Positions 14,653 through 60,621 of a stretch of 64,000 nt of DNA are shown one piece after another. Origin of the DNA: an uncultured bacterium (GTDB lineage Bacteria; Omnitrophota; Omnitrophia; Omnitrophales; Abzuiibacteriaceae); NCBI GenBank assembly GCA_964387845.1, contig CAYLXA010000005.1, positions 140,955 through 204,954 of the forward strand. The letters are read 5' to 3'. The translations under genes were made by a program, and so were the position numbers. Numbering within the stretch: the stretch's first letter is position 1; the number at the start of each line of letters is the position of its first letter. Below the pieces are notes generated by a model. It was given only the letters and a program-made list of their open reading frames with translations, was not told the DNA's origin and did no database searches.

Positions 14653-14708
14653 TAGCTGTGCCTTGAGTTGGTTTGTTGAAATACCGTGAAGCGTGACTGG
14701 AAAATGCA

Positions 14709-16427
14709 ATGAGCAAGATCACAAGCCGCGGCGTCGGAGTCGGTTTAAGAAAAGAGCACTACCCATCGATTCTTGAAAAATGGCCGCCCATGGATTGGTT
14801 TGAGGCCATTTCCGAGAATTACATGGATACGGGCGGCCGGCCGCTTGCTGCTTTGGAAAAAGTTCGTGCGCATTATCCCGTCGCGCTTCACGGTACTTCG
14901 ATGTCGCTTGGCTCTACCGATCCTTTCCATCCCGATTATTTGCCCCGTCTGAAAAAATTAATCGATCGCATCGATCCTTTTATTGTTTCGGACCACCTTT
15001 GCTGGTCCGGCGTCGACAAAAACCACCTTTACGACTTACTGCCGCTTCCGTTTACCGAAGAGGCCATCCGGCACTTGGTTTCGCGCATTCAGCAGGTCCA
15101 GGAATATTTGGGGCGCTCCATCCTGATTGAAAATGTTTCGACTTACATCACTTTCAAGAACTCCGAAATCAGCGAATGGGAATTTATTTCCGAAATTTCA
15201 AAGCGTTCAGGATGCGGCATTCTGCTTGATCTCAACAACATTTATGTCAATTCCGTTAATCACCATTTTGACCCTTTCGACTATATTCAAAACATTCCAA
15301 CCGAAGCCGTCGGTCAGTTTCATTTGGCGGGGCACACGGATATGGGAAAATATTTATTTGATACACACAGCGGTGCCGTGATTGACCGGGTTTGGGATCT
15401 GTACCGGAAAGCACTTGAGCGATTCGGACAAGTTTCAACCTTAATCGAGTGGGACGCCGAAATCCCGAGTTTCGAGAAGTTATCCGAAGAAGCCGCGAAA
15501 GCGCGGAATGTTTACAAAGAGTTTCCAGCCGTTGTTGCGAGGCATGAACCAAGCGGCGCCGAAGCAATCTCTGAATCGCAGATTGCTTCGACATCAACTT
15601 TGGAAACATCTCGCAATGACCGCAAAATTTTACTTTCCGAAATTCAAAAAAAATTCAGGCCCCGAATCCAGCCAAAGCGCCAGGCATTTGATCCTGCCGG
15701 CGAAGTTTTGAATCCCCAGGGCGGCGATCCGGGCGAAGTGCGCCTTGATGTTTACTCAAACGGTTATGTTGCGAGGTTCCAGGAGTCGCTCTCAGAAGTG
15801 TTCGAAGCTGTACACGCAGTCTTGGGCGATAGCGCATTCTATGATTTGGCGAGCGAATACACATTTCATTATCCGTCGATGCATTACAATTTAAATTTAG
15901 TCGGCTGTCATTTTCCGGATTTTTTAAAAACGCACCCGCTTTCAAAAAAAGTTCCTTTTTTGGCTGATTTGGCGCAGCTCGAGTGGCAAATTTCAGCGGC
16001 TTTTCATGCCTACGATATCGAGCCGATCAATCCGGCGCAGCTTGCGTCGATTCCGGCGGAGGAGTGGGAAGATCTGAGGGTGACTTTTCAGCCGTCGGTT
16101 TCGCTGCTTTCGTCGACATGGCCCGTGCTCGATATTTGGCTGAAACGGCATGAGCGCGCAGAGCGAGTCAATATCGACTTAGAAAACAGGCCTCAACATG
16201 TATTAATCGGGCGCCGCGAACTTCAAGTCCGGTGCGAATTTTTGGATTCACTCCAGTTTCACTTAATCAAAGGACTTTTAAACGGCCAAACGCTGGGCGA
16301 GGTATGCGGTGAGTTGGCGGATTTGGTTGAGGATGAAACCGAAATTCCCATAACCGATTGGTTTCAGCGCTGGGTCCGGGATCAAATGATTGTTCGCTGC
16401 GAATCTGCACGTCAAGCATCTTTGTAA
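14709..16427 (+). CDS. fused DUF692 (multinuclear non-heme-iron oxidase, MbnB/BufB-like) and DUF2063 (MbnC/BufC-like partner) protein
   Basis: aa 1-280: GVGLRKEHY...DWFEAISENYM...ALHGTSMSLGSTDP...FIVSDHLCWSG...ILIENVSTYI...GCGILLDLNNIYVNSVNH...FHLAGH (DUF692 TIM barrel); aa 330-572: VYSNGYVARFQESL...SAFYDLASEYTFHYPSMHYNLN...FLADLAQLEWQISAAFHA (DUF2063); single continuous frame. Confidence 0.85.
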   Translation: MSKITSRGVGVGLRKEHYPSILEKWPPMDWFEAISENYMDTGGRPLAALEKVRAHYPVALHGTSMSLGSTDPFHPDYLPRLKKLIDRIDPFIVSDHLCWSGVDKNHLYDLLPLPFTEEAIRHLVSRIQQVQEYLGRSILIENVSTYITFKNSEISEWEFISEISKRSGCGILLDLNNIYVNSVNHHFDPFDYIQNIPTEAVGQFHLAGHTDMGKYLFDTHSGAVIDRVWDLYRKALERFGQVSTLIEWDAEIPSFEKLSEEAAKARNVYKEFPAVVARHEPSGAEAISESQIASTSTLETSRNDRKILLSEIQKKFRPRIQPKRQAFDPAGEVLNPQGGDPGEVRLDVYSNGYVARFQESLSEVFEAVHAVLGDSAFYDLASEYTFHYPSMHYNLNLVGCHFPDFLKTHPLSKKVPFLADLAQLEWQISAAFHAYDIEPINPAQLASIPAEEWEDLRVTFQPSVSLLSSTWPVLDIWLKRHERAERVNIDLENRPQHVLIGRRELQVRCEFLDSLQFHLIKGLLNGQTLGEVCGELADLVEDETEIPITDWFQRWVRDQMIVRCESARQASL

Positions 16428-21034: not shown

Positions 21035-22978
21035 ATGTCCATTACGCAATCAACCACGGCCAAACTCCGAATTATTAGTTTCGAAAGCCGTCTGTCCTCA
21101 ACCATGACAGAGCTGATCCACAAAGCCGGCCATGCGCCTATCGCGGCGCCGGCACTGCAGGAAATCCCGCTCGAGAAAAATCCCGAAGCGTTTCAATTAG
21201 GGGAGCGGCTCCTCAATCACGAAATTGATTTCATGATCTTTCTAACGGGTGTCGGCACAAAAGCGCTCTTTGAAACCTTGAGAACCCGTTACAACATGAA
21301 ACAAATCATTGCGGCCTTGAATCAAACCATCATTGTTGCGCGAGGCCCGAAGCCGGTTCAGGTTTTGCAAGATTACGGAATCATGGTTTCGGTCCTGGTG
21401 CCGGAGCCCAATACCTGGCGCGACATTTTGGAAGTTTTAGACTCAGACGAGCATAGCATTTCTCTGATGAAAAGGACTGTCGCGGTCCAAGAATACGGAG
21501 AGGAAAATCCGCAGCTCATCGCCGGATTGGTGGAGCGCGGCGCGCGCGTAATCCGGGTTCCCGTCTACCGGTGGGCGCTGCCGGATGATACCAAGCCGCT
21601 AAAAAATGCGATTCGGACCATCATCGAACACAACGCGGACGCGGTGCTCTTCACAAACTCGGTGCAGGTCAATCATTTATTTCGGCTGGCCTCGGAAATA
21701 GGCCTTGAAAGGCATTTAAAACAGGCCTTTGCCAAAATGGTGATCGCTTCCGTCGGCCCTCATTGTTCTCAAGCGATTGTTGAGCATGGGCTTTCCGTTG
21801 ATATCCAGCCCGAGACGCCGAACATGGAGTCGCTCGTCTTGGAAGTGTCAAAACGCGCGAAGGCCATTTGGGATGAGAAGCAATTACATGAAAGCAAACT
21901 CATGGATTCCGGCATCCGAATGGAATCAGAAAGAGTCCAAAAAAAGGAATTGGTGGAAAGCGTATTTTTAAAAGCGTGCCGGCTTGAAAAAACATCTCAC
22001 ACACCGGTTTGGCTGATGCGCCAAGCAGGGCGCTACATGAAAGAATACCGGCAGCTGCGTGAAAAAATGCCCTTTCTGGAACTTTGCAAAAACCCATCAC
22101 TGTGTGCAGAGGTTACAATTCATGCCCAGGAAACCATCGGAGCGGACGCTGCTATTATTTTTTCGGATATCCTGCTTTTGGTACAGCCGTTTGGCCTGGG
22201 CCTTGAGTATTCGCGGGAAGACGGGCCCGTGATTGACAATGTTATTCACCGCGGATCGCGCATCGATGAACTTCCCGAGATCGAACCGGCCGATTCGCTC
22301 GGATTTGTATATGAAGCGATCCGAAAAACGCGCGAGAATCTGCAGTCCAACATTCCGCTGATCGGGTTTGCCGGAGCACCGTTTACGCTGGCGTCTTACA
22401 TGATTGAAGGCGGCTCATCAAAAGATTTTAGGCGCACAAAGCTATTCATGTATTCCGATGAAGGCCAGTGGCGCGCACTGATGGAAAAATTGGCACGCGC
22501 CGTATCGAAACATCTCAAGGCGCAAATTGAGGCCGGTGCTCAGGCGGTTCAGCTTTTTGACAGCTGGGTCGGTTGTTTAGGCCCCGGCGATTATAAAAAA
22601 TATGTACAGCCGTACTCCAAACAGGTATTTGATTCGCTAGAAGGGCTCGCGCCGACCATTCACTTTGGAACCAACACCGGAAATTTGTTGGAGCTCATGA
22701 AAGAGGCGGGCGGTGATGTAATCGGCGTCGATTTTCGGATCACGTTGGACCAGGCTTGGCGAAGAGTGGGATATTCAAAAGCAGTGCAAGGAAATTTGGA
22801 TCCGCTGGTGCTGCAGTCATCGATTCCTTATATTAATCAGCGTGCACAGGAAATTATCAAGCAGGCCTCCGGACGCCCAGGGCACATTTTCAATTTGGGC
22901 CACGGTGTTTTGCCGGATACGCCTGTTGAAAATGTGATCGCGTTGGTGGATATGGTCCACGAACTCAGTGGTAAGTGA
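21035..22978 (+). CDS. hemE: bifunctional uroporphyrinogen-III synthase (N-term) / uroporphyrinogen decarboxylase (C-term)
   Basis: C-terminal 350 aa: TPVWLMRQAGRYMKEYRQLREK... is the HemE signature; N-terminal 270 aa HemD-like (two-lobed flavodoxin-like; weaker); single ORF of 647 aa. Confidence 0.7.
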   Translation: MSITQSTTAKLRIISFESRLSSTMTELIHKAGHAPIAAPALQEIPLEKNPEAFQLGERLLNHEIDFMIFLTGVGTKALFETLRTRYNMKQIIAALNQTIIVARGPKPVQVLQDYGIMVSVLVPEPNTWRDILEVLDSDEHSISLMKRTVAVQEYGEENPQLIAGLVERGARVIRVPVYRWALPDDTKPLKNAIRTIIEHNADAVLFTNSVQVNHLFRLASEIGLERHLKQAFAKMVIASVGPHCSQAIVEHGLSVDIQPETPNMESLVLEVSKRAKAIWDEKQLHESKLMDSGIRMESERVQKKELVESVFLKACRLEKTSHTPVWLMRQAGRYMKEYRQLREKMPFLELCKNPSLCAEVTIHAQETIGADAAIIFSDILLLVQPFGLGLEYSREDGPVIDNVIHRGSRIDELPEIEPADSLGFVYEAIRKTRENLQSNIPLIGFAGAPFTLASYMIEGGSSKDFRRTKLFMYSDEGQWRALMEKLARAVSKHLKAQIEAGAQAVQLFDSWVGCLGPGDYKKYVQPYSKQVFDSLEGLAPTIHFGTNTGNLLELMKEAGGDVIGVDFRITLDQAWRRVGYSKAVQGNLDPLVLQSSIPYINQRAQEIIKQASGRPGHIFNLGHGVLPDTPVENVIALVDMVHELSGK

Positions 22979-34701: not shown

Positions 34702-34744
34702 CTCTTTTGTGTTATACTCTTTCGGTTCTTTGAGAAAGGCTTTT

Positions 34745-35172
34745 CTCGGTAGATGATCGCCTGCTGCATTTTGCAGTGGGAGGAAAGTCCGAACTTCACA
34801 GGGCAAGGCGCCCCGTAATACGGGGTGGGGCGGGAGCAAATCCCGCTTTAAGGAAAGTGCCACAGAGATTATACATCCGAAGTGGTAAGTGATAAGTGGT
34901 AGGTGGTAAATAGTAAATAAAGGAGTTATTGGCTTCTCATCAACTTAGCACTTACAACTTATCACTTACTACTGGATAAAGGTGAAACGGTGGCGTAAGA
35001 GACCACCGTGTATCGGCGTAAGCTGGTATGCAAGGTAAACCCCGCCTGAAGAAAGATGAAGATCGCGCAAGTTGACTTGTTCAGCTCAGGGCGGCCCGTT
35101 CTGCGCGCGTCTAACAAGATCGAATGACCCGAGGTTGCAAAATCCGGGCTAGACAGATGATCATCGCTTCTT
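34745..35172 (+). ncRNA. rnpB: RNase P RNA (bacterial type A)
   Basis: GGAGGAAAGTCCGAAC...ACAGGGCA (P4 region), AGGAAAGTGCCACAGAG (P10/P11), GGTGAAACGGTGGCGTAAGAGACCACC (P13/P14), CAAGGTAAACCCCGCCTGAAG, ...GGGCTAGACAGATGATCATCGC 3' end; ends approximate. Confidence 0.8.
34881..34973. repeat. GTAAGT-class hairpin embedded in RNase P RNA (forms the P12 helix)
   Basis: agtggtaagtgataagtggtaggtggtaaatagtaaataaagg ... caacttagcacttacaacttatcacttactact, lying between the AGGAAAGTGCCACAGAG and GGTGAAACGGTGGCG conserved blocks. Confidence 0.7.
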
Positions 35173-35173
35173 C

Positions 35174-35258
35174 AGTTGTAAGTGATAAGTGATAAGTGGT
35201 AAGTTGTAAGTTTTAAGAATTCATAAACTTATCACTTAAAACTTACCACTTACAACTG
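35174..35258. repeat. GTAAGT-class hairpin element with CCAGTTGTAAGT...ACTTACAACTGG termini
   Basis: cagttgtaagtgataagtgataagtggtaagttgtaag-ttttaagaattcataa-acttatcacttaaaacttaccacttacaactgg, directly 3' of rnpB. Confidence 0.75.
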
Positions 35259-35305
35259 GGGAAGAAACAGAATTCGGCTTATGCCGAGAAAAGCCTCTCT
35301 TTTTT

Positions 35306-47185: not shown

Positions 47186-47348
47186 GTGGTTGTTACTTCT
47201 CGCCTTAGTAACTAGAACTTTTTAGTTCTATTTACTACTTATTATACTAGTTTTAAATCCGTTTATCTTGTAATCTGATTATTTTTAGGATATACTTTTA
47301 GCTCGGGAATACCCGAAAAATTTCCGGCGAAAGGATTTCCTTTAAATA

Positions 47349-50300
47349 GTGAGGCCCTACTCTTTTTTTCTGCGCGCCATCTCCGCGCTCCTGATTTTTA
47401 CTTTCTCTTTCACTGAAACCATCGCACGCGCTGACGCAGCTCAGACATCGTCGCAGTTAGCGGCGATGCTAGAGCAGTCATCAAACCGGATGGGTTTGAT
47501 GGCCGAAACTATTTCTAGTTTTACGCGCAATAGTTATCTCGCCATCGAAAAATTCGCCAACTCCGTCGATGTCCGTTCCGAACTGCGTTCTCGAGGACTT
47601 GAATTATCTGGCGGTCATAAACCCATACCCCAAAGTGATACTAAAGAGGTAAATAATAATGACAAATCAGAGGCAGGGCATGAGCAGTCAGAAAAAGAAA
47701 TTCAGAGTTACGCTAAAAAATTAAAGGAATCAAAAGGTGATTTAAAGATTATTCGAGAGGCGATTGTTAATTTTCACCGCTTGGGCTATAGCGAAGTGAA
47801 AGTCGCAGAAATGATTAACCAAGTCAATCAAAATCAACCTTATGCACAAATTCAATATTGGTCGGATGAAGTCACCCAATCTACGTTAATCAAACGCTTT
47901 TCACAGCATCGAAAATTAATTAAATCTCTCCTTTGGCTTTTACTCCCGGTTGTTTGTTATTTTTTACCTTATCCAGGCGCGACTGCTTTACTTCTCTTGA
48001 TTTATCACGACGCAATGCACCGGTATCAAGCCGGCTTTTACTTTCTGACTTATTTTCTGGGTGATTTTTGGAATAATCGAATGGAAGATATTCAAAATTT
48101 TCTGGTCAAGAAGTATCACGAGCCCGATTTTAATTTTGAGGGTGATTTGTGGCTAAATCCGGTAGACCGGGCGCATGACCAATTATTCGAAGCCAAAAGG
48201 CAATTTTGGAAAAGCGTCCTTGAAAGCATGAGCGGAGTTTATATGGTCAGCTCGATCCTGGTTTTCCCATGGCTATTTTCAGCCCTGAGAATGCTGATAT
48301 CAGCCCCCATGGTTCTTGTTCAAACAGGCGTTTTTTCGTTCTTGGGCGCAATATCGATTGGTTTCTTCGGGCTAGTTCCTTTACGCGGGCCCCACTTTCA
48401 AGTTACGGCGGCAGATTTGGGCTTGGAGCATGCCGTCGATGTTGAAAGAACGTCCGTGACAGGTCTCCGGTGGCCTCAATTTTCAAACAAGCAGAATGCA
48501 ATGATTGAAGCTGCCCGTTTTTACTGGAATAGAAATCCGATGGTCCTGTATGTTGAGAAGAACCGCGAATCGAAGTTTGAATGGAATAGGCAAATCCGCC
48601 GCGACACTGCAAGCCGTCTTTTAGCCCGCCATTTTTTAACGGTCGTTTTGTTTGTTACGACTGCCTTAAGCACCATTTTATTGATTGCTATCAGCATTAT
48701 TCTTGGCTCAGGCGTTATAGGCGCGGTTGAGTTTGTTATTCAAAAATTCGGCCAGAGTTTTATAACGAATGTGTTGCTGATCGTGGGTTCTTGCTGCTTT
48801 TTTCCGCTTGTGGCCGTTATCATCATCAGCGCGATAGTTGTCGGAAGCGAACAAAGCATTGCTGGAGCATGGCAAAAAGCCCGGGCAGATATTAAAAGCT
48901 TGAAGAAAAACGTTTTCCTTAATCCGAATCAGTCTGATGAAAAATTTTGGAAAAATTTAATTAAGCAACTAAAGCGGATCAGTAAAGAAGAGGCGCCCTT
49001 TAGCGATATTAGTTTCCCTGAGTCGATTGAGCGGTTGATCCGTGATTTGTCATCTCTCAAAGAGGATCATTCGGAATTAATTCCGCTGCATGAGGCTCTC
49101 GCTACAGGCAAGGAGGGCACCGAATATCAAATCAAAGGGCAGGCGGCTCTGACTTCTGATCGACATTCGGATGATCCTTCAACGAAAGTCAGGGCAGAAC
49201 TCAGGACGACGAATGAACGGCTGATTTGGAAGGCAATTGCTCAATTTGGAATTCCGGAGTTTTATCAAGAGCAAGCCTATTTGTTTCTAAGCGGCTTGCT
49301 GGAAATTAATCAGAGTCAGTGGGGAACACCTTTCGAAGACGCAATCAGTAGACTTTCTCAAGTACAAGTTGAACAAATTAAATCTTCCATTTCTTTCGAA
49401 CCCATTGTCATGTCCACTACTTCTTTGGTTAGACGCACGGTTCGTTTTTCGGTTTATATGGCCGGTGTTATCGTTTTGGCGTATGCCGCCGGGGCTGCTT
49501 TGGCACGAGACATCAATTTGTTTAAACTTTTCAGCCAGATCGGAAAACAAAAACTTCCGGGGCCGGAGCAGATCGACATAGGGTTCGCGGCCATATTTTT
49601 ATTCACAATGTTTATCGGATTACCGTTTGTGATTACGCGTTTTCAAAGGTGGCTTGACGCCAAAATAAAACCTTATCCCATTTCTTACGATCTCAGGCGC
49701 ACAATCTTAAATGAATTGTTCGTCAAGCAAGGCCTCATGTCAACGGATGATGCGGAAGAATTGACCCGAAGAAAATATCGATCGGAATTGCGGACGGAGT
49801 GGGCAGATCAAATTAAGAGTTTGCTTTTAAAAGATTTTCCGTTCTTGGAACTCGATTTTTCTGAAAATGGTTACCTGTTTCGCGCTATCAGAAGTGGTTT
49901 GCGTGATGGATTGTCAAGAGGATCGTTCTCTTACCTAAATGACGGAGGCGTTGCGGCCGGTTGGCAAGAAAAGCATCTTGTCTATTTTGTTTCCGAAGAT
50001 CCAAATGATGCCCTTGATGTTGCTGAATTTCAAAACGGATTTCCGGATAACGCAGTCGTTATTTTCCCGAGCAAATTATTTCACGATGAAATGAATGCAG
50101 GCCGTGCTGCCATCATGACCACCCATGGGCTTTCCGGGACGTTGACGGGTATCAAATGGCCTCTCATGACGAACCCGGTTACGATTCAAGATTCTGCTTT
50201 TATTATTGTTACTCCTGAAACCAAACAATATTTGGACAATCTGCTGGTCAATGGTCAGGCAAGCGGCGAAGAAGAAAAATTAAGACTCCGGCTTTTGGAA

Positions 50301-53300
50301 TATCAGAAGCAGGGGATTTATCAAAAAATTGTTGCCTTGAATTTTGAACCAAAAGGCATGGCAGCGGATGCGATTCAAGAGAAGTTTAAGGCATTTTTAT
50401 TGAGCAAAAGCATTCAGCCGGCGCAAGCGATTGATTCTGAAATATATCCAAACTTGGCCGAAATTCAAAGTGATGGCGTAAACAAAAGGCGCTCCGAGCT
50501 GCGGTCCAGGGAATTTGTTAAATTTAGCGAGCTTGGATCTGCAATCGCTGACTATATTGATCTTTTTCGCAAGAGAAACGGAAGGTTTAGTCCATCGGTT
50601 TTAAGAGCGGTTGCTGATCTTGATTTCGGAACCGAGCGGCAATTTGTTAATGTAGCGTCTGTGCCGTTGAGAAACGGTTTCGTACCCGATCCTCAAGCTT
50701 TTGGCAGGGCCGTTGTTGAGGGGATCGTAAGAGAACTTCCGTTTGAAGTACGGCCCATCGAAAAGTTCAGTTTTGCGTATAAAAAGCATGCGTTCAGAAT
50801 TCGCATGGAAACGGGGAATCAGCAGACGCAGAATAAAGAAGCACATTCGGAGTTGAGGGCAAGGAAAGTTAGAAATGATACGAGCGAGACCAAGTTACAC
50901 CCTAGAGCCGATCGTTTCCATTCATTACGTTCTCTCAAGCGATTTTTCTTAGGCCTACTGATAATTGGCTTAGCTGCGAGCATGTTTATTTGGACACACG
51001 ATCATGACCGATTATCTCTGGATCCCTCATTCATAAAGGTGGCCGTTCATTCTGGCATTCTGGCAATTGTTTCAACTTATATTTTTTGGTGGATGAAGCG
51101 GTATTTGACGACCGGTTTTTTGTTAAGAGAAAAAATCTACAAATTATCAAGGTCATCACCCACATACGAATTCGAATTTGGGAATGTCCGCAATAAGCTT
51201 CTCATTTTAGAAACGCCCGACGGAGGCAAGCATCAACTCTATCTTGATGCGAACCGAAATATTCGCATCATGTCTTTTCGTGAGTCCGGTCAGGGGCTCG
51301 TTAAATTTCTTCTGCCGTACGCGCTAAGCATCAGGCCTGACAAACAACTTTTGATCTATAAAAATAATATCGCATTGCAGGTAATCGGCCCGCAGAAAAT
51401 AAGAATTAAACTGCTCAGCAGATCATCAACGGTTCCGATTATTCGCGAAAGCCGCTTAAACAAAATACAGAGAATTATGATCATGCATCCGATTATCATC
51501 GGAGTGGCTCTCGGTTATGTGATGATGTTGCATAGATTCATGTATTTATTTGCTCATGCGTTTGCTTCGCAAATAATCGGCGGTCACGTCAATTGCATCC
51601 AGTGTATCGAGGAGTTTGAATTTGTTGTAAACACATGGACCGACTATCTCCTGTATGGGATTCCGATTGGCTATCCAGTTGCCAGCGTAATACTAAAGCT
51701 TATTTTTTTCGGTTATAAGAAATATATGCGAGCAAGCAGGGCATTCATTGCCCCCACGCAAGAATTGCCGGACAAACCGGTGCTGTTTGACGAAACATTC
51801 GCAAAAAATTCGGGGCAGCAGTTTGTGTTGAGCGTTCGTCCATTTAAAGAAAGGCAGGTTGGACGTGTGATCCGAAAATTAAAAACCATACGCGAATCCG
51901 GTTTGCAAGTAAGCGATCAGACGATTCAAAATTTATACCGGCTTGTCCGGACAGTCCAGTCCGACCCGTTTGAGGGGCCGGACATTGAATTTGAATTAAT
52001 GCATTGGCTAGAAACCAGCGCAGACTTAAAAGCAATTGCAGCCATCGTCACCGGCTGGTTTCAAATTCGCGGTGACCATACGACCAAGATCAATAGAATT
52101 TTAGAACAGCGATTTAAGTTGAACAAAAAACAAATTGAAAAGCTGAAATATTTGTCTGAATCCTACAGTATCCCGCTAGAGGAAACCGCTATTGATCCGC
52201 CAAGTTCCATGGAACCTATTCCGTACACAGATCAATTAAAAGACCGAACCATTTACCAAATATTCGGGCAAGAGTTTATGGATGAGGCCCTTGAGCGGAT
52301 TGACTCTATCGATGCCAATAAGTTAAAAGATTGGGTGCAAACAGTTTTTAATAAAAACTTCTCGTCAGATTCCAAAGTGCCCATACGCTCTATTTTTCTG
52401 TATGGAAGTTATATTTACGGATCCATCGACGAACCGCGGGATCTTGATTTGATTGCCGTTGTGGAAGGCGATTCGCTTGAGAAGCCCATTCCGGATGAGC
52501 GGACAATACCTAAGAATGTTTTTCGGTCGATGCGCGGGCGTTCGGTCAATTCTGCAAATATTTATTTTTTGACACGTAAACAATTGCAAACAAGCAAGCG
52601 CGCGATTCACGCAGCCAGCGTGGGTATTTTGCTTAAGGCAAAAAATTTATATGACGAACCCCTGAATAGTATTAGAAATTCTGATCAGAAGCAGCTGTTT
52701 TATGCCGCCAGCGAATTAAGTGATGCGTTTGATTTCATCAAGAAAGCTGGCAAAGTAAACAAAATGATCGATTCTGCGAGAATTTTCAACTGGAAAGGAT
52801 TCAGGCGATTGATGGAAGTCGTTCTTTATATTAATGCAATTGACCTGTCTTTATCAATTCCCATTTCTGAAATCGTGACGATGAACAACCGCATGGAAGA
52901 TTACATCGTAAATAAGACAAAAGGCCGCAAAATAACCGAAGGGTTAAAGCGCCTTTACAGGATGGTCCGCACAGCGGTTTTATTAACCCGCGTTTCGCTC
53001 GTTTGGCGGCAAATGGAGGAATGGGGCGGCGGTGAGCATGCGAAGCAAGCGCAGCGTTCGGAATTGCGCAGAAAAATTGAGACAGGAACAGACAAACTTC
53101 TGGCAGAAGTGGACCGCGGCGTGGCGACCGTGATTTTCAATGATCTGCCGAATCGCAATGCCATGAACGGGGAAATGTTCGAAGCGGTCCCGCGTGTTTT
53201 GTTTAAATTAGACAACGATCCCGATGTGAAGCTTTTGGTTTTACGCGGCGCAGAAGACCCCAAAACCCATGAACATCATTTGGCCGGCGGCAACATTGAA

Positions 53301-56300
53301 GAACGTTACCAAATTATGGACCGGGGCGATCACAAGGAATTAGAAAAGCAAATTCTTGAGAAATACGAAATGCTTGCCGCGATTCACTATTTTTCGAAAC
53401 CAAAAATTGCATTGATCGACGGATTTGCAGTAGGCGGCGGGCTTGCAGCTGCGTTCGGCAGTCATTATGTTTTGGCGACGGAGAAGGCAAAATTCGGAAC
53501 ACCCGAAACCAAAACCGTGGGTTCCTATATGGATGGCGCCAACGCGGCATTCATGGCAGACCGGTTTGGATTAGATTATGTAGCGAATGAATTATTTATC
53601 ACAGGTCGGCATGAGGAAGCCAGTGCCCTCATTGATCAATTCGATCATCAGGTTCCGCAGTTAGGCGACATGTATGCGGCTTATTATGGTTATACCGGTT
53701 CGCCCATTCCTTTGGACGAAGCAATATATTACGGGCTCGTCCATTCAACCATACAAGATGCTAAAGCTACAGAAGAAACGCTCAAAGAGTTGGTGAGCTC
53801 TCAACCAAATCTTTCTCCCGGCGAACTCTTAAACAAAGTTAATGACACATTTCCGCGTTCTCAATTGACGGAAACAGAACGCCAAGCCGTCAAAAAGCGC
53901 CGTGATTTGATGGCGAAATACTTTCAAGTGGAAGAAGCGCGTTTCAGTGGCGTGATTAATTTTATGATCGACCGGCTTTCGAACGAAACCTTGAGGAGCA
54001 AAATGGATCCGGACGAGCTTCAGTTCGTGATCGATACACTTACCAAAATCTCAAAAAATTCGCCATTTGGTGTTCTTGCGACCTCGCATATGATTCGCGA
54101 TCACGCGTTTCTCCATGGCCATTTCATACCGGTCAGTCTCAGCCAAATTTACGAACAAGCGTTTGCCCGTACTTTAGAAAGAATGAAAACGTCCGAATTG
54201 GTGAATGGAAAGTTTCCGTTCGTGCGAATGGGTATGTTGTTGCGATCCACGCACGACTCGGTCTTGCTGCGAGGCGTTTTTATTCGCGAAATCGACACCA
54301 CGCTCAAAGTATTCGGAATTGATGAGGAATTTAGAAATTCGCTTGCCCGGGCTGATGTGTTAGAAGGGCTCCGTTCGTTTTTGGAACGCCGAAAACCTGA
54401 CTGGCCTTCAAAGCAGCATGATGGTGATTTATCAAAATTATGGGGCCGGATCGAAGAAACTTTGAAAAAAGTCGAGGGCCATCGTTCCGAACTTAGGCGT
54501 GAAGCAATTATTGATGACGCTCTTGGCGGCGCTTTTGGCGGTAGAGAAGGTATTGGTAAACTAATCCAGCGATGGCAAATAGAGAAAGCGTTATTAGTAT
54601 TTCCATTTTATTTGGCCTCCTTGGCCCGCTCTTGGTTAGGAAATAAAGCAATTGCAGTTACAATGAGCAGCCCCATCGTCGCAACCAAGCCTATTTTCCA
54701 GGTGAACGAAAAATCACTAAATAACCGAGTTGCCAATCCTGCTGTTCCGATATATTGGGCAAACGTCATGCTGGATCTTGCCATGAATTCTGTTTTTTCC
54801 AGGCTTGCTTTCTTCATTACAGTAACATACTCCTCTCCTCATGTAAATCTTGGCTTTTTGAGCCGGCAGCACCCTATCATAAATATTATATTAAGTCAAT
54901 ATTTATTTTATTTATATAAAATATTTGAAAGGAGCCAGCAGGACCAAAAAAAGGCCGAATACGAAGCCGCCGGACAAGTCAACCGTTCCGGACTGCGTGT
55001 GCCCGATTGGCTGCTTTATTTTGGTTTTGGGATTTTGGCCGTACTGGTTGTGGGAATCGCTTCTTTATTTTATTACACCATCCGGCATCCGGATGGTGAC
55101 TCAAACGAATCCAGCTCCCCGGAAACATCGGGCTCTGCCCAGGATCAAAATGATCATTTGGGCCCACCGAGGTCTGAGTTAAGAAAGTTTGATGAATCAA
55201 ACAATGCGCCAAGGTCGCGCATCCGGTGGATTTTGAATTCGATTTGGAATGCGCAAGGCGGAAATTTAGACCGTGAAGTATGGCAGCCCAGCCTGGCGCA
55301 TGCCCGCCGTTTGATCAAACGTTTCCGCCGCGTTCCCGGCATGGGCGAGATCATTTTAGAACTGGGCAAAAATTTCAGGAACCACAAAGCTTTTGATGCA
55401 GTCCTCGCCGAATTATTTGCGGCCGAGTATTTGGAGAAACACGTGCCGGGTTCTAAAGTGATTGGCTTAAGGATGAAAGCCCGGCATGGTGAAATCGATA
55501 TTGTGCTGCGCATCGGCCCAGTTACTTCCCAAGGAAAGCCAAAGGCCGGCGCCGTCAAGCTTGCGCCGGGCATTTACCTGGCCGAAGTCAAATACGGCTA
55601 TGGCAATGATCCTCAATTGGTCCAGTGGAAACAGGCGAAACTGAAAACTCAGTTGAAAAGTTATTCGAGCGTCGCTTCGATCCTTACGCAGGCAGGCCTT
55701 GACGTTCAGGGCCTAATCCTGGTGAGCGCGGAAAGCCCGGCTTATGTTGCGAGCAATCTCCGCCGCCGTGCGTATTGGCGCGCTTCCAATGTTTCAAAGG
55801 GTTTCAGTCTTAAAAATCTTTTGATCGCCTTTGACCCTTTGAGTTATCCGGACAAGCGGCAAATTGTTCCTCCTCAAAATATTGACGTCAGGCGCTGGGC
55901 ATCGGTCACTTCAACACCTGCTGCTGTTTTTAAAAAGCCGATTCCCGAATCCGCAAATCTTGCTTTGAGCCGGCCGTTGAGGCCAAGAAAAAAGACAGCG
56001 CCTGATGCCGGCGATCCAAACCGCTCGGCGCGATTACCCAGAAATTTTCTGGAAACCGTTGCGCAATTAAAAGAAGCTTTGAACGATCATGGATTGAAAA
56101 AAGAGGCAATCGAAGCCGTGTTGTCTTCACTTGCCAGCCAGGCACATGGTTTTAAAATCGAAGGCTTAGCGCTGAAAGAAAATGACGGCCTTCATTATGT
56201 ACGCGGCCTCAGAGAGGAAATTCGAAGCGGTAATCCGTTCTGGATGGTCCGGCTTCACCGTGCAAACAGAGAAAAATTTGAATCCACACTTATCGCGCGC

Positions 56301-57515
56301 TGGAAAATTCCGGACGAAGCGGTGCAGGATTGGAAAGCCGCCAACCGTTCGGAGCTTAGAACCGATTTGAGAATTGTGCGCTTGCTTGATGAGAGAAACG
56401 ACAAGCTGGTGCCGGCGGCGATCTTATACATGGATTTATTTTTAACTTTCAGGGAACATGGCGCCGAACTTCAGAATTTAACGAGCCATGATTTGTTTGG
56501 AATTACGCCCCATCGGCATCCCGAAGAGGGAATGGCTTATAAAATTATGTTTACGTTACCCAATCAACTTCCGAAGGCCGTCCTTGAAATCGTATCGGAT
56601 GACAAAGGAGAAAAATATAACGCGCAAGACTCCGATTATCCCGTCTTCTTTAAATTTGATTCCAACATGAACTTGATTGCGGTCTATATTACGCTAGATT
56701 CGGAAAAGCCCGAGTATCTTGAGCTCGAAATCCTGCAGCGCGCCGAAAAGGGGACCTTGAAGCCGTACTTTATTAATGAAGAAATCGGTATCCAATACCG
56801 TTCCGGCAATTTGATTCTTCTTCCTCAACCCAAAAGCTTCCGGCTTTCCGCACCGAACCTGGTTTTGCGCGCAAGTCGAACAACCGAGATAAGGTCAGAA
56901 CTGCGATTGGTGCGGCAAGCCGCAAGCTCCAAGCCGCAGGCTCAAGAGTTCGAAATGCTTGATATGCAGGATTCAAAAGCACCGGAAGTCAAGAGTGAAC
57001 TGCGGAAAATTGCGGAGCAAATGAATTTGATCGTGCCGAAGCCGACGGCCGAAATGGACGCCGCGTTTCAAAAATTTGCCGGAATTGAATCTTCGGATCA
57101 AGCCGCACAAACGCAGATTCTTGGAATCTTGCCGAATTTGGGACGTTCGGAGCTTCGCAGCGCCATTATCCAAAGCCAAAGCCGGCAGCGCAAAATCATT
57201 GTCTTTGTGGGTACAAAAAGCGAAAAGCAAATGGTCGAAGACTTTGTTTCCAGTCAAAAGATTCCGGCCGGACGGGTTGTGGTTACGCAAGTTGTTGATC
57301 CGAACATCATCTTCGGAGATCAAAAGCGGGCGGAGCTGCGTTTAGTCGGGTTCGCCGGTGATGAGCCGTATGCATTTCAGGTAACGCGGCTCTTGCGTGG
57401 TTATGATGTTAAAACGCGGATCGGCACCGAGCAAATGTTCGCGAGTATTTTCCAGATTACAGATACTCTGCGTTCCGAACTTCGTCAGCGCATGGCGGCT
57501 TTGATTGCAGCGTAA
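47349..57515 (+). CDS. giant (3388 aa) secreted/membrane modular protein with 14 recurrent RSELR-like pentapeptides; includes nucleotidyltransferase-like, crotonase-like and PD-(D/E)xK nuclease-like modules
   Basis: Uninterrupted 10167-nt frame; GTG start with N-terminal signal-peptide-like MRPYSFFLRAISALLIFTFSFTETIARA; at least 5 TM-rich blocks; LYGSYIYGSIDEPRDLDLIAVV (NTase GS...DxD); VATVIFNDLPNRNAMNGEMFEAV...IDGFAVGGGLAAAFGSHYVLATEKAKFGTPETK (crotonase fold); GEIDIVLRIG...IYLAEVKYG (D...ExK); codon usage like neighbours. Confidence 0.85.
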   Translation: MRPYSFFLRAISALLIFTFSFTETIARADAAQTSSQLAAMLEQSSNRMGLMAETISSFTRNSYLAIEKFANSVDVRSELRSRGLELSGGHKPIPQSDTKEVNNNDKSEAGHEQSEKEIQSYAKKLKESKGDLKIIREAIVNFHRLGYSEVKVAEMINQVNQNQPYAQIQYWSDEVTQSTLIKRFSQHRKLIKSLLWLLLPVVCYFLPYPGATALLLLIYHDAMHRYQAGFYFLTYFLGDFWNNRMEDIQNFLVKKYHEPDFNFEGDLWLNPVDRAHDQLFEAKRQFWKSVLESMSGVYMVSSILVFPWLFSALRMLISAPMVLVQTGVFSFLGAISIGFFGLVPLRGPHFQVTAADLGLEHAVDVERTSVTGLRWPQFSNKQNAMIEAARFYWNRNPMVLYVEKNRESKFEWNRQIRRDTASRLLARHFLTVVLFVTTALSTILLIAISIILGSGVIGAVEFVIQKFGQSFITNVLLIVGSCCFFPLVAVIIISAIVVGSEQSIAGAWQKARADIKSLKKNVFLNPNQSDEKFWKNLIKQLKRISKEEAPFSDISFPESIERLIRDLSSLKEDHSELIPLHEALATGKEGTEYQIKGQAALTSDRHSDDPSTKVRAELRTTNERLIWKAIAQFGIPEFYQEQAYLFLSGLLEINQSQWGTPFEDAISRLSQVQVEQIKSSISFEPIVMSTTSLVRRTVRFSVYMAGVIVLAYAAGAALARDINLFKLFSQIGKQKLPGPEQIDIGFAAIFLFTMFIGLPFVITRFQRWLDAKIKPYPISYDLRRTILNELFVKQGLMSTDDAEELTRRKYRSELRTEWADQIKSLLLKDFPFLELDFSENGYLFRAIRSGLRDGLSRGSFSYLNDGGVAAGWQEKHLVYFVSEDPNDALDVAEFQNGFPDNAVVIFPSKLFHDEMNAGRAAIMTTHGLSGTLTGIKWPLMTNPVTIQDSAFIIVTPETKQYLDNLLVNGQASGEEEKLRLRLLEYQKQGIYQKIVALNFEPKGMAADAIQEKFKAFLLSKSIQPAQAIDSEIYPNLAEIQSDGVNKRRSELRSREFVKFSELGSAIADYIDLFRKRNGRFSPSVLRAVADLDFGTERQFVNVASVPLRNGFVPDPQAFGRAVVEGIVRELPFEVRPIEKFSFAYKKHAFRIRMETGNQQTQNKEAHSELRARKVRNDTSETKLHPRADRFHSLRSLKRFFLGLLIIGLAASMFIWTHDHDRLSLDPSFIKVAVHSGILAIVSTYIFWWMKRYLTTGFLLREKIYKLSRSSPTYEFEFGNVRNKLLILETPDGGKHQLYLDANRNIRIMSFRESGQGLVKFLLPYALSIRPDKQLLIYKNNIALQVIGPQKIRIKLLSRSSTVPIIRESRLNKIQRIMIMHPIIIGVALGYVMMLHRFMYLFAHAFASQIIGGHVNCIQCIEEFEFVVNTWTDYLLYGIPIGYPVASVILKLIFFGYKKYMRASRAFIAPTQELPDKPVLFDETFAKNSGQQFVLSVRPFKERQVGRVIRKLKTIRESGLQVSDQTIQNLYRLVRTVQSDPFEGPDIEFELMHWLETSADLKAIAAIVTGWFQIRGDHTTKINRILEQRFKLNKKQIEKLKYLSESYSIPLEETAIDPPSSMEPIPYTDQLKDRTIYQIFGQEFMDEALERIDSIDANKLKDWVQTVFNKNFSSDSKVPIRSIFLYGSYIYGSIDEPRDLDLIAVVEGDSLEKPIPDERTIPKNVFRSMRGRSVNSANIYFLTRKQLQTSKRAIHAASVGILLKAKNLYDEPLNSIRNSDQKQLFYAASELSDAFDFIKKAGKVNKMIDSARIFNWKGFRRLMEVVLYINAIDLSLSIPISEIVTMNNRMEDYIVNKTKGRKITEGLKRLYRMVRTAVLLTRVSLVWRQMEEWGGGEHAKQAQRSELRRKIETGTDKLLAEVDRGVATVIFNDLPNRNAMNGEMFEAVPRVLFKLDNDPDVKLLVLRGAEDPKTHEHHLAGGNIEERYQIMDRGDHKELEKQILEKYEMLAAIHYFSKPKIALIDGFAVGGGLAAAFGSHYVLATEKAKFGTPETKTVGSYMDGANAAFMADRFGLDYVANELFITGRHEEASALIDQFDHQVPQLGDMYAAYYGYTGSPIPLDEAIYYGLVHSTIQDAKATEETLKELVSSQPNLSPGELLNKVNDTFPRSQLTETERQAVKKRRDLMAKYFQVEEARFSGVINFMIDRLSNETLRSKMDPDELQFVIDTLTKISKNSPFGVLATSHMIRDHAFLHGHFIPVSLSQIYEQAFARTLERMKTSELVNGKFPFVRMGMLLRSTHDSVLLRGVFIREIDTTLKVFGIDEEFRNSLARADVLEGLRSFLERRKPDWPSKQHDGDLSKLWGRIEETLKKVEGHRSELRREAIIDDALGGAFGGREGIGKLIQRWQIEKALLVFPFYLASLARSWLGNKAIAVTMSSPIVATKPIFQVNEKSLNNRVANPAVPIYWANVMLDLAMNSVFSRLAFFITVTYSSPHVNLGFLSRQHPIINIILSQYLFYLYKIFERSQQDQKKAEYEAAGQVNRSGLRVPDWLLYFGFGILAVLVVGIASLFYYTIRHPDGDSNESSSPETSGSAQDQNDHLGPPRSELRKFDESNNAPRSRIRWILNSIWNAQGGNLDREVWQPSLAHARRLIKRFRRVPGMGEIILELGKNFRNHKAFDAVLAELFAAEYLEKHVPGSKVIGLRMKARHGEIDIVLRIGPVTSQGKPKAGAVKLAPGIYLAEVKYGYGNDPQLVQWKQAKLKTQLKSYSSVASILTQAGLDVQGLILVSAESPAYVASNLRRRAYWRASNVSKGFSLKNLLIAFDPLSYPDKRQIVPPQNIDVRRWASVTSTPAAVFKKPIPESANLALSRPLRPRKKTAPDAGDPNRSARLPRNFLETVAQLKEALNDHGLKKEAIEAVLSSLASQAHGFKIEGLALKENDGLHYVRGLREEIRSGNPFWMVRLHRANREKFESTLIARWKIPDEAVQDWKAANRSELRTDLRIVRLLDERNDKLVPAAILYMDLFLTFREHGAELQNLTSHDLFGITPHRHPEEGMAYKIMFTLPNQLPKAVLEIVSDDKGEKYNAQDSDYPVFFKFDSNMNLIAVYITLDSEKPEYLELEILQRAEKGTLKPYFINEEIGIQYRSGNLILLPQPKSFRLSAPNLVLRASRTTEIRSELRLVRQAASSKPQAQEFEMLDMQDSKAPEVKSELRKIAEQMNLIVPKPTAEMDAAFQKFAGIESSDQAAQTQILGILPNLGRSELRSAIIQSQSRQRKIIVFVGTKSEKQMVEDFVSSQKIPAGRVVVTQVVDPNIIFGDQKRAELRLVGFAGDEPYAFQVTRLLRGYDVKTRIGTEQMFASIFQITDTLRSELRQRMAALIAA
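54608..54817 (-). CDS. possible small membrane protein encoded antisense inside the giant gene (speculative)
   Basis: 69 aa MKKASLEK...IGLVATMGLLIVTAIALF (one TM helix); GGAGAGGAG SD about 10 nt upstream; AT-rich promoter-like stretch 54840-54930 upstream on that strand. Confidence 0.2.
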   Translation of the reverse strand: MKKASLEKTEFMARSSMTFAQYIGTAGLATRLFSDFSFTWKIGLVATMGLLIVTAIALFPNQERAKEAK

Positions 57516-57598
57516 CCAGTTGTAAGTTGTAAGTGATAAGTGTTAAGTGATTGAAAAAATTAATGCATACCACTTACAACTTACCACTTATCACTTAA
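57516..57598. repeat. GTAAGT-class hairpin element directly after the giant gene stop
   Basis: ccagttgtaagttgtaagtgataagtgttaagtgattg-aaaaaattaatgcat-accacttacaacttaccacttatcacttaat. Confidence 0.75.
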
Positions 57599-57643
57599 TA
57601 CTTTTCCTGCTATAATTCCCACTTCTTATTTCAAGGAGAAAGC

Positions 57644-59303: not shown

Positions 59304-59873
59304 ATGAAAAAGAGCGGCCAATCCCTGAAAGGGAAAACCATTTTGCTGGGCTTGAGCGGAAGCATCGCGCTTTACCGTTCCTGTGATCTGGTTCGCGAGC
59401 TCAAGTCACAGGGCGCCGATGTGATCTGTATCATGACAAAATCGGCTCAGCAATTTGTGACGCCTCTTACTTTCCAGGCTTTAAGCGGCCGCAAAGTTTA
59501 CACCGACCCTTTTTCCGGTGAAGAAGATTACGCGGTTCTGCACACAACACTCGCCGACAAAGCCGATTTGATTTTGATTTGTCCGGCCTCTGCGAACATT
59601 ATCGCGCGCCTCGCGGCCGGCATGGCGGATGACATGGTGACTTCGGTCGTGCTGGCGAGCAAGGCAAAAATTCTTGTGGCGCCTGCCATGAACGACAACA
59701 TGTTCGCCAACAAAATCACGCAGGATAATATCCAAAAATTGAAGAAAATCGGTTATCAATTTGTCGAACCCACCGAAGGCGACCTGGTCTGCGGCCGCGT
59801 TGGTATGGGCCATATCGCGGAACAGGGTACGATCCTCGAATACGTTCAAAAAGTAGTAAGTGGTAAGTTTTAA
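59304..59873 (+). CDS. coaC: phosphopantothenoylcysteine decarboxylase (flavoprotein; CoaC half of CoaBC)
   Basis: KGKTILLGLSGSIALYRSCDLVRELKSQGADV...PAMNDNM; the last 6 codons (VVSGKF) and the stop lie inside the GTAAGT-type hairpin element. Confidence 0.85.
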   Translation: MKKSGQSLKGKTILLGLSGSIALYRSCDLVRELKSQGADVICIMTKSAQQFVTPLTFQALSGRKVYTDPFSGEEDYAVLHTTLADKADLILICPASANIIARLAAGMADDMVTSVVLASKAKILVAPAMNDNMFANKITQDNIQKLKKIGYQFVEPTEGDLVCGRVGMGHIAEQGTILEYVQKVVSGKF

Positions 59874-59973
59874 GTGGTAAGTCAAAAATAATGAATAATG
59901 CAAATTCCTTCCTTTTCTTAATTCTTTTGCTTATCACTTACCACTTACCACTTACCACTTATCACTTACAACT
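59853..59973. repeat. GTAAGT-class hairpin element separating coaC and coaB
   Basis: gtagtaagtggtaagttttaagtggtaagtc-(58-nt AT-rich loop)-cttatcacttaccacttaccacttaccacttatcacttacaactg; contains the coaC stop. Confidence 0.75.
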
Positions 59974-59979
59974 GTACTC

Positions 59980-60621
59980 ATGAAACCCCACCTTCTCGTC
60001 ACGGCCGGCCCGACGCGCGAAATGCTGGATCCCGTTCGCTTTTTGTCGAACGTATCAACCGGCGTGATGGGCTATGAAATTGCAAAAGCCGCAAAAAGAA
60101 AAGGTTTCCGCGTGACATTGATCAGCGGGCCCGTCAGTTTAAAAGCACCACATGGTGTCCGGCTCGTTTCCGTGATTTCTGCTCAGGATATGGAAAGGGA
60201 AGTGAAAAAATATTTCCGATCTGCGCAAGCGCTCATCATGACTGCCGCCGTTTGCGATTATACGCCGGCAAAACACCAGAAGCACAAAATCAAGCGGATT
60301 CATACACATCGGATGGTGTTCAAGCAGACGAAAGACATTCTGCAAGCCGTTTCTAAAATGAAAAGGAGGCAGTATGTTGTCGGCTTCTGCCTCGAAACCG
60401 AGGATTTGCGTAAGAACGCAATCCGCAAACTCCGGTCTAAAAAACTGGATTTGATTGTTGCGAATTCCTATACACGGTCGCAGAACCCGTTTGGCAGAAA
60501 TAAAACCTCTGTTCTTTTAATTGATAAAGATTTAAGCGAGAAGAGAGTTTCCAATATCAGCAAACCGCGCTTTGCGGCGAGGCTCGTTGCTTGTGTCCGG
60601 AATCAGCTTAAAAAGAGTTGA
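59980..60621 (+). CDS. coaB: phosphopantothenate-cysteine ligase (CoaB half of CoaBC)
   Basis: LLVTAGPTREMLDPVRFLSNVSTGVMGYEIAKAAKRKG...: ATP-grasp-like CoaB; start is 7 nt after the end of the hairpin element. Confidence 0.85.
   Translation: MKPHLLVTAGPTREMLDPVRFLSNVSTGVMGYEIAKAAKRKGFRVTLISGPVSLKAPHGVRLVSVISAQDMEREVKKYFRSAQALIMTAAVCDYTPAKHQKHKIKRIHTHRMVFKQTKDILQAVSKMKRRQYVVGFCLETEDLRKNAIRKLRSKKLDLIVANSYTRSQNPFGRNKTSVLLIDKDLSEKRVSNISKPRFAARLVACVRNQLKKS

Follow-up and report, generated by a model that had tools for sequence, protein, structure and literature searches.

What is the role of a five-residue motif that recurs fourteen times within a single bacterial protein? The question is raised by a 64-kb stretch of an Omnitrophota genome (contig CAYLXA010000005.1, positions 140,955 to 204,954; hereafter the window), in which an unbroken frame on the plus strand, at positions 47349..57515, runs from a GTG start to a TAA stop and encodes 3,388 amino acids (aa). 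An earlier inspection of the letters (the sequence-only reading) had noted this one unbroken 10.2-kb frame, and it is confirmed here. The protein is made of about ten unrelated modules separated by an RSELR-type tag. We advance, tentatively, the reading that RSELR is the processing site of a bacterial polyprotein that would be cut by one dedicated endopeptidase.

The motif [RKH][SA]ELR is present 14 times in the 3,388-aa protein (10 RSELR, 2 RAELR, 1 HSELR and 1 KSELR), with copies starting at residues 76, 615, 811, 1048, 1166, 1903, 2379, 2608, 3000, 3182, 3215, 3266, 3327 and 3375; the sequence-only reading had the same number and spellings, at positions that were off by 0–3 residues. From the protein's own composition 0.008 copies of RSELR would be expected, and all 14 of its ELR tripeptides lie within motif copies. 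The motif is absent from the other five reading frames of the window, and the remainder of the 64 kb holds a single KSELR, in PyrK, which is approximately the chance level. A degenerate fifteenth copy, RSGLR, is found at aa 2546 (nt 54984-54998), where the DNA is 93% identical to that of the first copy; it lies shortly ahead of a transmembrane (TM) segment at aa 2555.

Codons vary between the copies of the window gene, and the same holds across the ten genes of the family for which DNA is available: 58 distinct 15-mers are found among 60 copies, which between them draw on each of the six codons for Arg and for Leu and on both families of Ser codons. A DNA repeat search recovers the motif sites only as loose 15-mers of 80–93% identity. 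This diversity rules out a DNA repeat or recombination scar as the origin of the motif and, as the sequence-only reading had proposed for the window gene, places conservation at the level of amino acids; the number of distinct 15-mers and the codon spread together indicate strong selection on the peptide across lineages.

The features of the gene, from its promoter region to the sequence beyond its stop codon, are as follows.

47186..47348, plus strand: AT-rich upstream intergenic region, with a promoter-like site at 47268-47296 and AAAGGA 13 nt before the GTG (consensus matches only)
47349..47432, plus strand: Sec-type leader, aa 1-28, MRPYSFFLRAISALLIFTFSFTETIARA then D; a conserved, family-specific signal-like peptide
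47574..49190, plus strand: motif 1, RSELR (47574-47588), and module aa 76-614, with six hydrophobic segments (aa 190-505) and no Pfam family
49191..49778, plus strand: motif 2, RAELR, and module aa 615-810, with two hydrophobic segments
49779..50489, plus strand: motif 3, RSELR, and soluble orphan module aa 811-1047, no family
50490..50843, plus strand: motif 4, RSELR, and soluble orphan module aa 1048-1165
50844..53054, plus strand: motif 5, HSELR, and module aa 1166-1902, with four hydrophobic segments and then a Pol-beta-like nucleotidyltransferase signature
53055..54482, plus strand: motif 6, RSELR, and enoyl-CoA hydratase/3-hydroxyisobutyryl-CoA-hydrolase-like module aa 1903-2378 (Pfam ECH_2 at nt 53112-53618)
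54483..55169, plus strand: motif 7, RSELR, and hydrophobic module aa 2379-2607, containing the degenerate RSGLR
55170..56345, plus strand: motif 8, RSELR, and module aa 2608-2999, with a YraN/UPF0102-like PD-(D/E)xK signature at nt 55407-55640
56346..56891, plus strand: motif 9, RSELR, and soluble orphan module aa 3000-3181
56892..57512, plus strand: motif 10, RSELR, and C-terminal domain (CTD) aa 3182-3388, ending ..ALIAA, with the size and position of the family CTD
56991 KSELR, 57144 RSELR, 57327 RAELR and 57471 RSELR, plus strand: internal motif copies of the CTD
57518..57588, no strand: inverted repeat with 29-nt arms directly 3' of the stop (DNA repeat search)

The module at aa 1903-2378 is the only part of the protein with an above-threshold family in Pfam, NCBIfam or PADLOC. 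It belongs to the crotonase/enoyl-CoA hydratase (ECH) superfamily, with a profile match over the N-terminal spiral core: PF16113 (ECH_2) matches aa 1922-2090 at E=2.7e-28 (99.9 bits against a cutoff of 27.2), PF00378 at E=3.8e-18 and PDB ECH chains at E~1e-11. The crotonase-fold block of the sequence-only reading is thus borne out. The companion suggestion, offered as speculative, that this module might itself be the protease, is rejected: it is an ordinary ECH_2-type enzyme module common to relatives with a 3-hydroxypropionate-like enzyme set. ClpP and SppA families are not among its matches. Two further blocks carry the signatures that had been noticed in them, each weak: the nucleotidyltransferase signature (aa 1677-1708, nt 52377-52472), legible as GSYIYGS..DLDL, scores E=0.06 against Polbeta, and the PD-(D/E)xK signature in module aa 2608-2999 is sub-threshold at E=0.003 against UPF0102. 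All 13 hydrophobic segments fall in modules 76-810, 1166-1902 and 2379-2607 (TM and signal-peptide calls were made throughout by simple hydropathy and inspection).

Relatives of such a protein are rare. A word-indexed homology search with the whole protein returned only the protein itself and P0002 (3,200 aa), and an exhaustive phmmer search of 1.84 billion representatives with the last 214 residues of P0002 gave six matches (P0002, P0006, P0007, P0009, P0010 and P0008). Scans of genome contigs with the whole protein and with an alignment of the MT36 module found no relative, and a metagenome-contig scan with the leader alignment found only the already known JGI contig. The window protein is not a one-off: ten more giants of this kind come from other uncultured bacteria, at least two in number. 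The organisms known total only four, and in one the motif is missing. The match to P0008 (SRR3989338) is of another kind: this 533-aa protein consists of six near-identical tandem repeats of ~88 aa that match the helical N-terminal part of the family CTD six times (E=1e-7), and its relation to the family looks spurious.

The contigs of the relatives carry strings of giant genes. Organism A is known from JGI 3300028648 and from three Logan runs, organism B from Logan run SRR15237813, and the module identities below are from Pfam.

Organism A, part 1: 862 aa (HMGL-like); 1,661 aa (PGK and PGM); 522 aa; 118 aa
Organism A, next: 2,454 aa, AprA-like methyltransferase and acyl-CoA carboxylase
Organism A, next: 1,918 aa, MeaB twice, epimerase, methylmalonyl-CoA mutase and B12 domain
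Organism A, next: 3,200 aa (P0002), ECH_2, several SDRs and TIM
Organism A, last: 4,204 aa, Pcs-like AMP-ligase/reductase/ECH unit, PEPCK and metallophosphatase
Organism B, part 1: at least 1,681 aa (glutamate dehydrogenase-like and membrane modules); 522 aa; 4,508 aa (P0009)
Organism B, last: 5,718 aa, 3HCDH, MCM, AMP-ligase, HpcH/HpaI, MaoC and ACAD

The enzyme content of the giant genes at the three relatives' loci (L002, L006 and L008) resembles a 3-hydroxypropionate/methylmalonyl-CoA-type carbon pathway together with lower glycolysis: ACC, Mcr-like SDRs, a Pcs-like unit, ECH, epimerase and MCM/MeaB are present, as are HpcH/HpaI lyase, MaoC, ACAD, PEPCK, PGK, PGM and TIM. A biotin-carrier domain was not detected in the carboxylase modules of these genes. 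At L008 (2893-2940) the 862-aa gene, which has a leader and no CTD, ends in TGA, and the 1,661-aa gene, which has a CTD and no leader, follows in frame 42 nt on; the other complete giant genes stop at TAA or TAG. These two may be a single gene, through read-through, recoding or a recent split. A further 118-aa gene at L008 (9673-10029), of the 23S-rRNA-IVP/bAvd-like four-helix-bundle kind, lies between the 522-aa and 2,454-aa genes and overlaps the start of the latter; it is absent at the equivalent place of L006.

The window most probably belongs to organism B, an argument made from shared sample and composition. The gmk protein of the window was recovered in run SRR15237813, the same run as P0009; the tetranucleotide correlation of the window with locus L006 is 0.97, compared with 0.98 within the window, and GC content is 0.479 in the window and 0.486 in L006.

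These records bear on a further explanation, that the repeated motif is an artefact or accident, whether of a DNA-level repeat, of a mis-assembled or frame-shifted fusion, or of composition. Two irregularities might be cited in its favour: the NCBI gene call (P0001) starts at a later ATG, 50 codons downstream of the GTG, and the 862-aa and 1,661-aa genes are divided by an in-frame TGA. The GTG is preferred over the ATG because the leader that it adds is homologous to the leaders of the relatives. The 3,388-aa protein is on record in identical form from NCBI and Logan assemblies (P0001/P0003), identical proteins of the family come from independent assemblies (JGI, ENA, several Logan runs and NCBI), and the motif is kept where modules have diverged to 43–50% identity. 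Together with the excess of copies over expectation and the diversity of their 15-mers, these observations effectively refute an artefact.

If the motif is under selection, what distinguishes the places where it stands? Members of the family share an N-terminal leader, ..LL(F/V)TFSFT(S/N)S(I/V)(A/T)YS then D, which is homologous in all N-terminally complete members except the 1,661-aa gene. The leader of the window protein opens with a basic n-region, continues with a hydrophobic core of 13 residues and closes with A-R-A followed by D, with a predicted cleavage site placed by the -3/-1 rule; it aligns with six other family leaders and is 48% identical to that of P0009 over 33 aa (E=1e-6 in a 46-module database). 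It also fits the more general family pattern ..(L/V)xF(S/T)F(T/S)x(S/T)(I/V)x(Y/R)(S/A) then (D/E). Its c-region also resembles that of an unrelated exported peptide of the window (..ASVAYA then ED). The first motif follows 25–50 aa past the leader, in most members as part of a longer context, ELRxxxGLP. After it, organisms A and B have a conserved peptide of ~35 aa, a second motif and then the modules, each preceded by a motif. Where modules have been redistributed between genes, each of the receiving genes again has a leader, a pro-peptide and a CTD.

The constant position and context of the first copy, the Sec-type leader of all members and the membrane modules interspersed in many of them would suit a topogenic, translocation or quality-control signal read during Sec/YidC threading, for instance by marking every module boundary for a pause or a hand-over, or as a reversible modification site. 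No known translocon or ribosome signal is similar, the Ser is replaceable by Ala or Thr, and the motif also flanks purely soluble modules in proteins that are free of TM segments, and we therefore regard this explanation as quite improbable. Phosphorylation of the motif Ser is likewise unlikely, given that Ala and Thr are tolerated at that position.

The eleven proteins contain 61 motif copies in a total of 26,479 residues. In the 58 copies with full flanks, information is concentrated at the five motif positions (3.0–4.0 bits each), with position 2 accepting Ser, Ala or Thr and a weak preference for S, A, N or T in the residue that follows (0.8 bit). The flanks are enriched in S, P, Q and T, and in orthologous linkers the pentapeptide alone is conserved. 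Hydrophilic linkers, which the sequence-only reading had given as the setting of every copy in the window protein, surround 11 of the 14; the last three are placed otherwise. Across the family none of 57 copies falls within a Pfam best-stretch envelope, although such envelopes cover 34% of residues (P~6e-11), and in an AlphaFold2 (AF2) model the junction motif before a canonical CTD is disordered (pLDDT<50).

The spacing of the copies is that of a separator between complete proteins. A motif ends 10–25 aa upstream of Pfam position 1–3 of the following enzyme and starts 15–45 aa downstream of the end of the preceding one, and [RKH][SAT]ELR is present at every recognisable junction; in the window protein the ECH_2 match begins ~15 residues past the end of the motif at 1903. 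The framing of the motif as a polyprotein or docking site, first made for the window protein, thereby extends to its relatives. Units delimited in this manner include PGK (388 aa), ECH_2 (385 and 476 aa), a PEPCK module (788 aa) and a three-domain Pcs-like unit (1,987 aa), and natural multi-domain enzymes are left uninterrupted. Orthologous modules of organisms A and B are 43–50% identical and align from first to last residue between motifs; this upholds the earlier claim that the motifs mark junctions between dissimilar modules. The ECH module of the window aligns with its orthologs in P0002 and P0004 from the motif onward. A and B arrange their modules in different orders and place them in different genes.

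A sharp five-residue element in disordered linkers with free flanks would suit a docking motif equally well, and the proteins may be uncleaved 'beads-on-a-string' mega-enzymes or membrane-tethered metabolons in which RSELR binds one common partner, such as the CTD, the 522-aa protein or a chaperone, that organises or compacts the chain. Omnitrophota giants with a signal peptide, TM segments and many enzymes have indeed been described as intact (10.64898/2026.06.07.730766). Such an arrangement is not easily squared with modules that move between genes and have no conserved order, or with odd numbers of TM segments between cytoplasmic-type enzymes (P0009 has 3 predicted TM segments between its methyltransferase module and MeaB-MCM); its binding partner is also only hypothetical, and copies buried in a strand or helix would be unable to bind in extended form. 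We consider docking in an uncleaved chain unlikely, though it is the main rival of the polyprotein reading, and two further observations, described below, speak for it.

The polyprotein reading is favoured because the units are complete, unrelated in function, different in membrane topology and re-sorted between genes; because the site is short and sharp and stands in disordered linkers, with both caps regained by each gene; and because the system is accompanied by a partner gene of high conservation. An intact chain is hard to reconcile with soluble, cofactor-dependent enzymes that share it with membrane modules whose hydrophobic segments are odd in number. The precursor would consist of a Sec-type leader, a short pro-peptide, a series of modules each preceded by RSELR, and a last RSELR followed by the CTD of ~205 aa. 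Each module would be a complete protein of a kind that usually stands alone, some being soluble enzymes and others membrane proteins, and [RK][SA]ELR in its disordered, S/P/Q/T-rich linker would be the recognition site of the endopeptidase. Cutting at the pentapeptide would release the modules much as RNA-virus polyproteins and prohormones are divided, with leader and CTD serving as indispensable caps that direct the precursor to where it is processed. The scissile bond would lie either after the last Arg or between [RK] and [SA]. A cut after the last Arg resembles factor-Xa- or kexin-type sites, and one between [RK] and [SA] leaves stabilising N-termini. What the sequences show is the statistics of the motif, its placement at junctions, its conservation between organisms, the two caps and the neighbouring gene; that the motif is cut, at which bond, by which enzyme and in which compartment is what we infer.

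The C-terminal end of the window protein requires separate treatment. The family CTD is an alpha/beta domain of ~205 aa, and the last 207 residues of the window protein match it in length, position and -AA ending, with a collinear alignment at only 15–20% identity (hhalign probability 38%, E=3e-4; hmmsearch E=0.003 in an 11-protein database). An AF2 model guided by the family alignment is of moderate confidence (pLDDT 61.5 overall, 66–84 for residues 80-214), and its beta-alpha order is that of the canonical CTD. The short C-terminal segments that had been taken for a run of separate units are thus, on the model, probably one diverged family CTD peppered with extra motif copies. The model leaves motif 3182 disordered, puts motif 3215 in a helix of low confidence and motif 3266 at the start of a helix, and has motif 3327 in a strand, where it replaces the conserved VGVVKYVT, and motif 3375 in the terminal helix. 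Copies inside a folded domain, which the sequence-only reading had named as evidence against a linker motif, are therefore probable for 3266, 3327 and 3375, and for these copies that reading is in part contradicted. The CTD of the 1,661-aa protein of organism A also has four extra copies, at different positions. Such copies would be odd for a cleavage site and acceptable as binding sites, which is the first of the observations that speak for docking. As to the CTD itself, it was rejected as a recognisable protease fold, and it is not the C-terminal beta-sandwich sorting domain (Por_Secre_tail type) of cargo of the type IX secretion system (T9SS).

Which enzyme might do the cutting? No cognate protease had been noticed in the window, and that remains the case, but a candidate exists outside it, in the relatives. 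A 522-aa protein is encoded directly beside the giant genes of organisms A and B, has its own family-like leader, and is far more conserved than the giant-protein modules (86% identity between A and B, compared with 43–50%). Its alignment shows conserved DAHxxxEAQ and AGG(F/Y)H motifs, and Pfam matches it weakly to PF04187 Cofac_haem_bdg ('Tiki superfamily, ChaN') at E=0.001. This superfamily takes in the Tiki metalloprotease, TraB/PrgY and the erythromycin esterases, with paired GxxH/E motifs at the metal site, and we take both conserved motifs of the 522-aa protein to fit that pattern. On these sequence features the 522-aa protein is the best protease candidate and a lead only. A homolog was not found in the 64-kb window; the run shared with P0009 and the tetranucleotide correlation with L006 suggest that the genome of the window's organism probably encodes one elsewhere. 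A viral-contig scan with the 522-aa alignment gave no match. Another possible family protease, an HExxH in module 63-462 of P0007, was rejected as it is present in that one protein only. Searches of NCBIfam and PADLOC matched neither leader nor CTD, and likewise none of the orphan modules and not the 522-aa protein; with Pfam included, these collections have no model for the leader, the motif context, the CTD or this neighbour.

One relative separates the components of the system. P0004, a 5,041-aa protein from an ENA assembly, has the family leader, ECH_2, Pcs-like and Mcr-like enzymes and an -ALAA end, and a 522-aa-like domain follows its leader directly in the same chain. This homolog thus keeps the leader, the tail and enzymes in fusion while containing no motif, and the motif is dispensable for fusion as such. 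That enzymes of this kind can work fused without separators is the second observation in favour of docking.

Several findings weigh against the polyprotein reading. A protease domain was found neither in the giant protein nor in the 64-kb window, and no peptidase gene was seen near the giant open reading frame (ORF) in the window. The PF04187 match of the 522-aa protein stays below threshold, at 19.5 bits where the cutoff is 27.7, and covers ~60 residues, the C-terminal AGGFH segment only, and a profile search of PDB sequences with this protein was empty. P0004 combines a fused 522-aa-like domain with zero ELR. Three to four copies in the CTD of the window protein, and four in that of the 1,661-aa relative, apparently belong to helices, or to a strand, within a folded domain. 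A Sec-type leader ahead of enzymes that need ATP, GTP, CoA, S-adenosylmethionine or B12 is topologically paradoxical under every reading, and the 1,918-aa relative is without any TM segment. With these points in mind, the wider proposition that a few uncultured diderm bacteria make a substantial part of their central metabolism as Sec-leader chromosomal polyproteins, cut at RSELR by a conserved Tiki/ChaN-like enzyme, appears possible and is, in our view, doubtful.

The nearest systems in apparent working are viral polyproteins and MARTX toxins, and the family belongs to neither. As in the polyproteins cut by picornavirus 3C, flavivirus NS2B/NS3 or potyvirus NIa, a long ORF joins unrelated complete proteins, membrane proteins among them, and a short, fixed junction sequence with free flanks is selected at the level of amino acids. 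Unlike these, the window gene is bacterial and chromosomal, lying between the pyr operon and yicC-gmk; its protein has no protease domain in cis by Pfam, NCBIfam or PADLOC, whether searched whole or module by module; and the family adds a Sec-type leader and a conserved CTD. MARTX toxins of Vibrio are proteins of 3,500–5,300 aa in which an internal C80 cysteine protease domain cuts after Leu in linkers. Shared with them are giant size, modules shuffled between strains or genomes, and short putative sites in linkers between modules; on the other hand, Pfam finds no RTX-type repeats or Peptidase_C80 in the window protein or its relatives, the leader is an N-terminal Sec leader and not a signal for type I secretion, and the cargo consists of metabolic enzymes and membrane modules, not toxins.

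Other precursors share single elements with the family. Porphyromonas gingivalis gingipains and HagA, with other T9SS cargo, consist of a signal peptide, domains and a conserved CTD and are processed at Arg or Lys; the signal peptide, the multi-domain precursor, the C-terminal 'cap' and the basic residue at the putative P1 position are common to both. Cyanobactin PatE, Kex2-processed fungal and yeast precursors and prohormones are multi-core precursors cut at repeated recognition sequences. In these too a repeated short motif flanks units, and the 33–61-aa C-terminal segments of the window protein are superficially similar; yet the units here are mostly whole enzymes of 120–2,000 aa, no maturase of the kind found with ribosomally synthesized and post-translationally modified peptides (RiPPs) is adjacent, and the short segments are likelier one folded domain.

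Closest in content are the giant 'multi-enzyme metabolic cluster' proteins of Omnitrophota, which have a signal peptide as well as TM helices (bioRxiv 10.64898/2026.06.07.730766) and for which cleavage into smaller products has been proposed, with information on the cleavage points absent (West-Roberts et al., 10.1101/2023.11.21.568195). Many metabolic Pfam domains (e.g. PGM/PMM) are carried on one polypeptide with a signal peptide and TM segments in both, and the same paradox of leader versus enzyme topology arises (10.64898/2026.06.07.730766). The published proteins are far longer, at 10,000–147,000 aa compared with 3,388 aa, and neither preprint reports a separator motif, a family leader, a C-terminal cap or a partner gene. 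A literature search on RSELR, bacterial polyproteins and fused Mcr/Pcs found nothing relevant. The logic is known from polyproteins or giant multi-enzyme proteins, whereas the separator-and-cap system is one not described before.

Whether bacterial giant proteins are single chains or are cut is an open question (10.1101/2023.11.21.568195), to which this family supplies a concrete code, made up of one pentapeptide with ~60 natural occurrences, of caps that are defined, and of a candidate enzyme. If the polyprotein reading is true, it would represent a cellular counterpart of viral polyprotein processing and the first defined cleavage code for bacterial giant proteins, and would imply that bacteria can make housekeeping enzymes in stoichiometric amounts by way of polyproteins. 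Giant ORFs could then be divided informatically into functional units, and synthetic 'fuse-and-cleave' designs would gain a compact, orthogonal pair of protease and site. If the chains are instead intact, the motif would be a new assembly signal for membrane-tethered multi-enzyme chains.

The surroundings of the gene are unremarkable and agree with the location among core genes reported earlier. Upstream lie guaA, dnaE, dnaG, rpoD, lptF/G, the RNase P RNA, pyrR-B-C, carAB and pyrK-D-F, and downstream yicC-gmk-rpoZ-coaC/B; all are of normal size and form an ordinary core set of a diderm bacterium. The giant gene has a GC content of 0.454 compared with 0.479 in its flanks, and its tetranucleotide profile correlates more closely with the giant-gene loci of organism A (r=0.96) than with its own flanks (0.93). 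This shift could reflect a common amino-acid or codon bias of such genes, or transfer. Between the TAA of the giant gene and yicC, inverted repeats with arms of 25–29 nt and GTAAGT-like units extend over 57518-57606; the one at 57518..57588 may be a terminator or regulatory hairpin.

Elsewhere in the window, the region 14395-16427 encodes an 85-aa peptide that has a Sec signal ahead of a body rich in Cys (CSGVNACKGNGDCGG), directly 5' of a fusion of MbnB/TglH/ChrH (DUF692) with DUF2063, and looks like a bufferin-type RiPP operon with both maturation proteins fused. A single 647-aa ORF at 21035-22978 joins uroporphyrinogen-III synthase (HemD) to uroporphyrinogen decarboxylase (HemE). The class A RNase P RNA at 34741-35296 is 556 nt in length compared with the 367 positions of the model, and must therefore contain large insertions. 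At 59304-60621, CoaC (flavoprotein) and CoaB (DFP) are encoded by two genes rather than by the usual fused coaBC.

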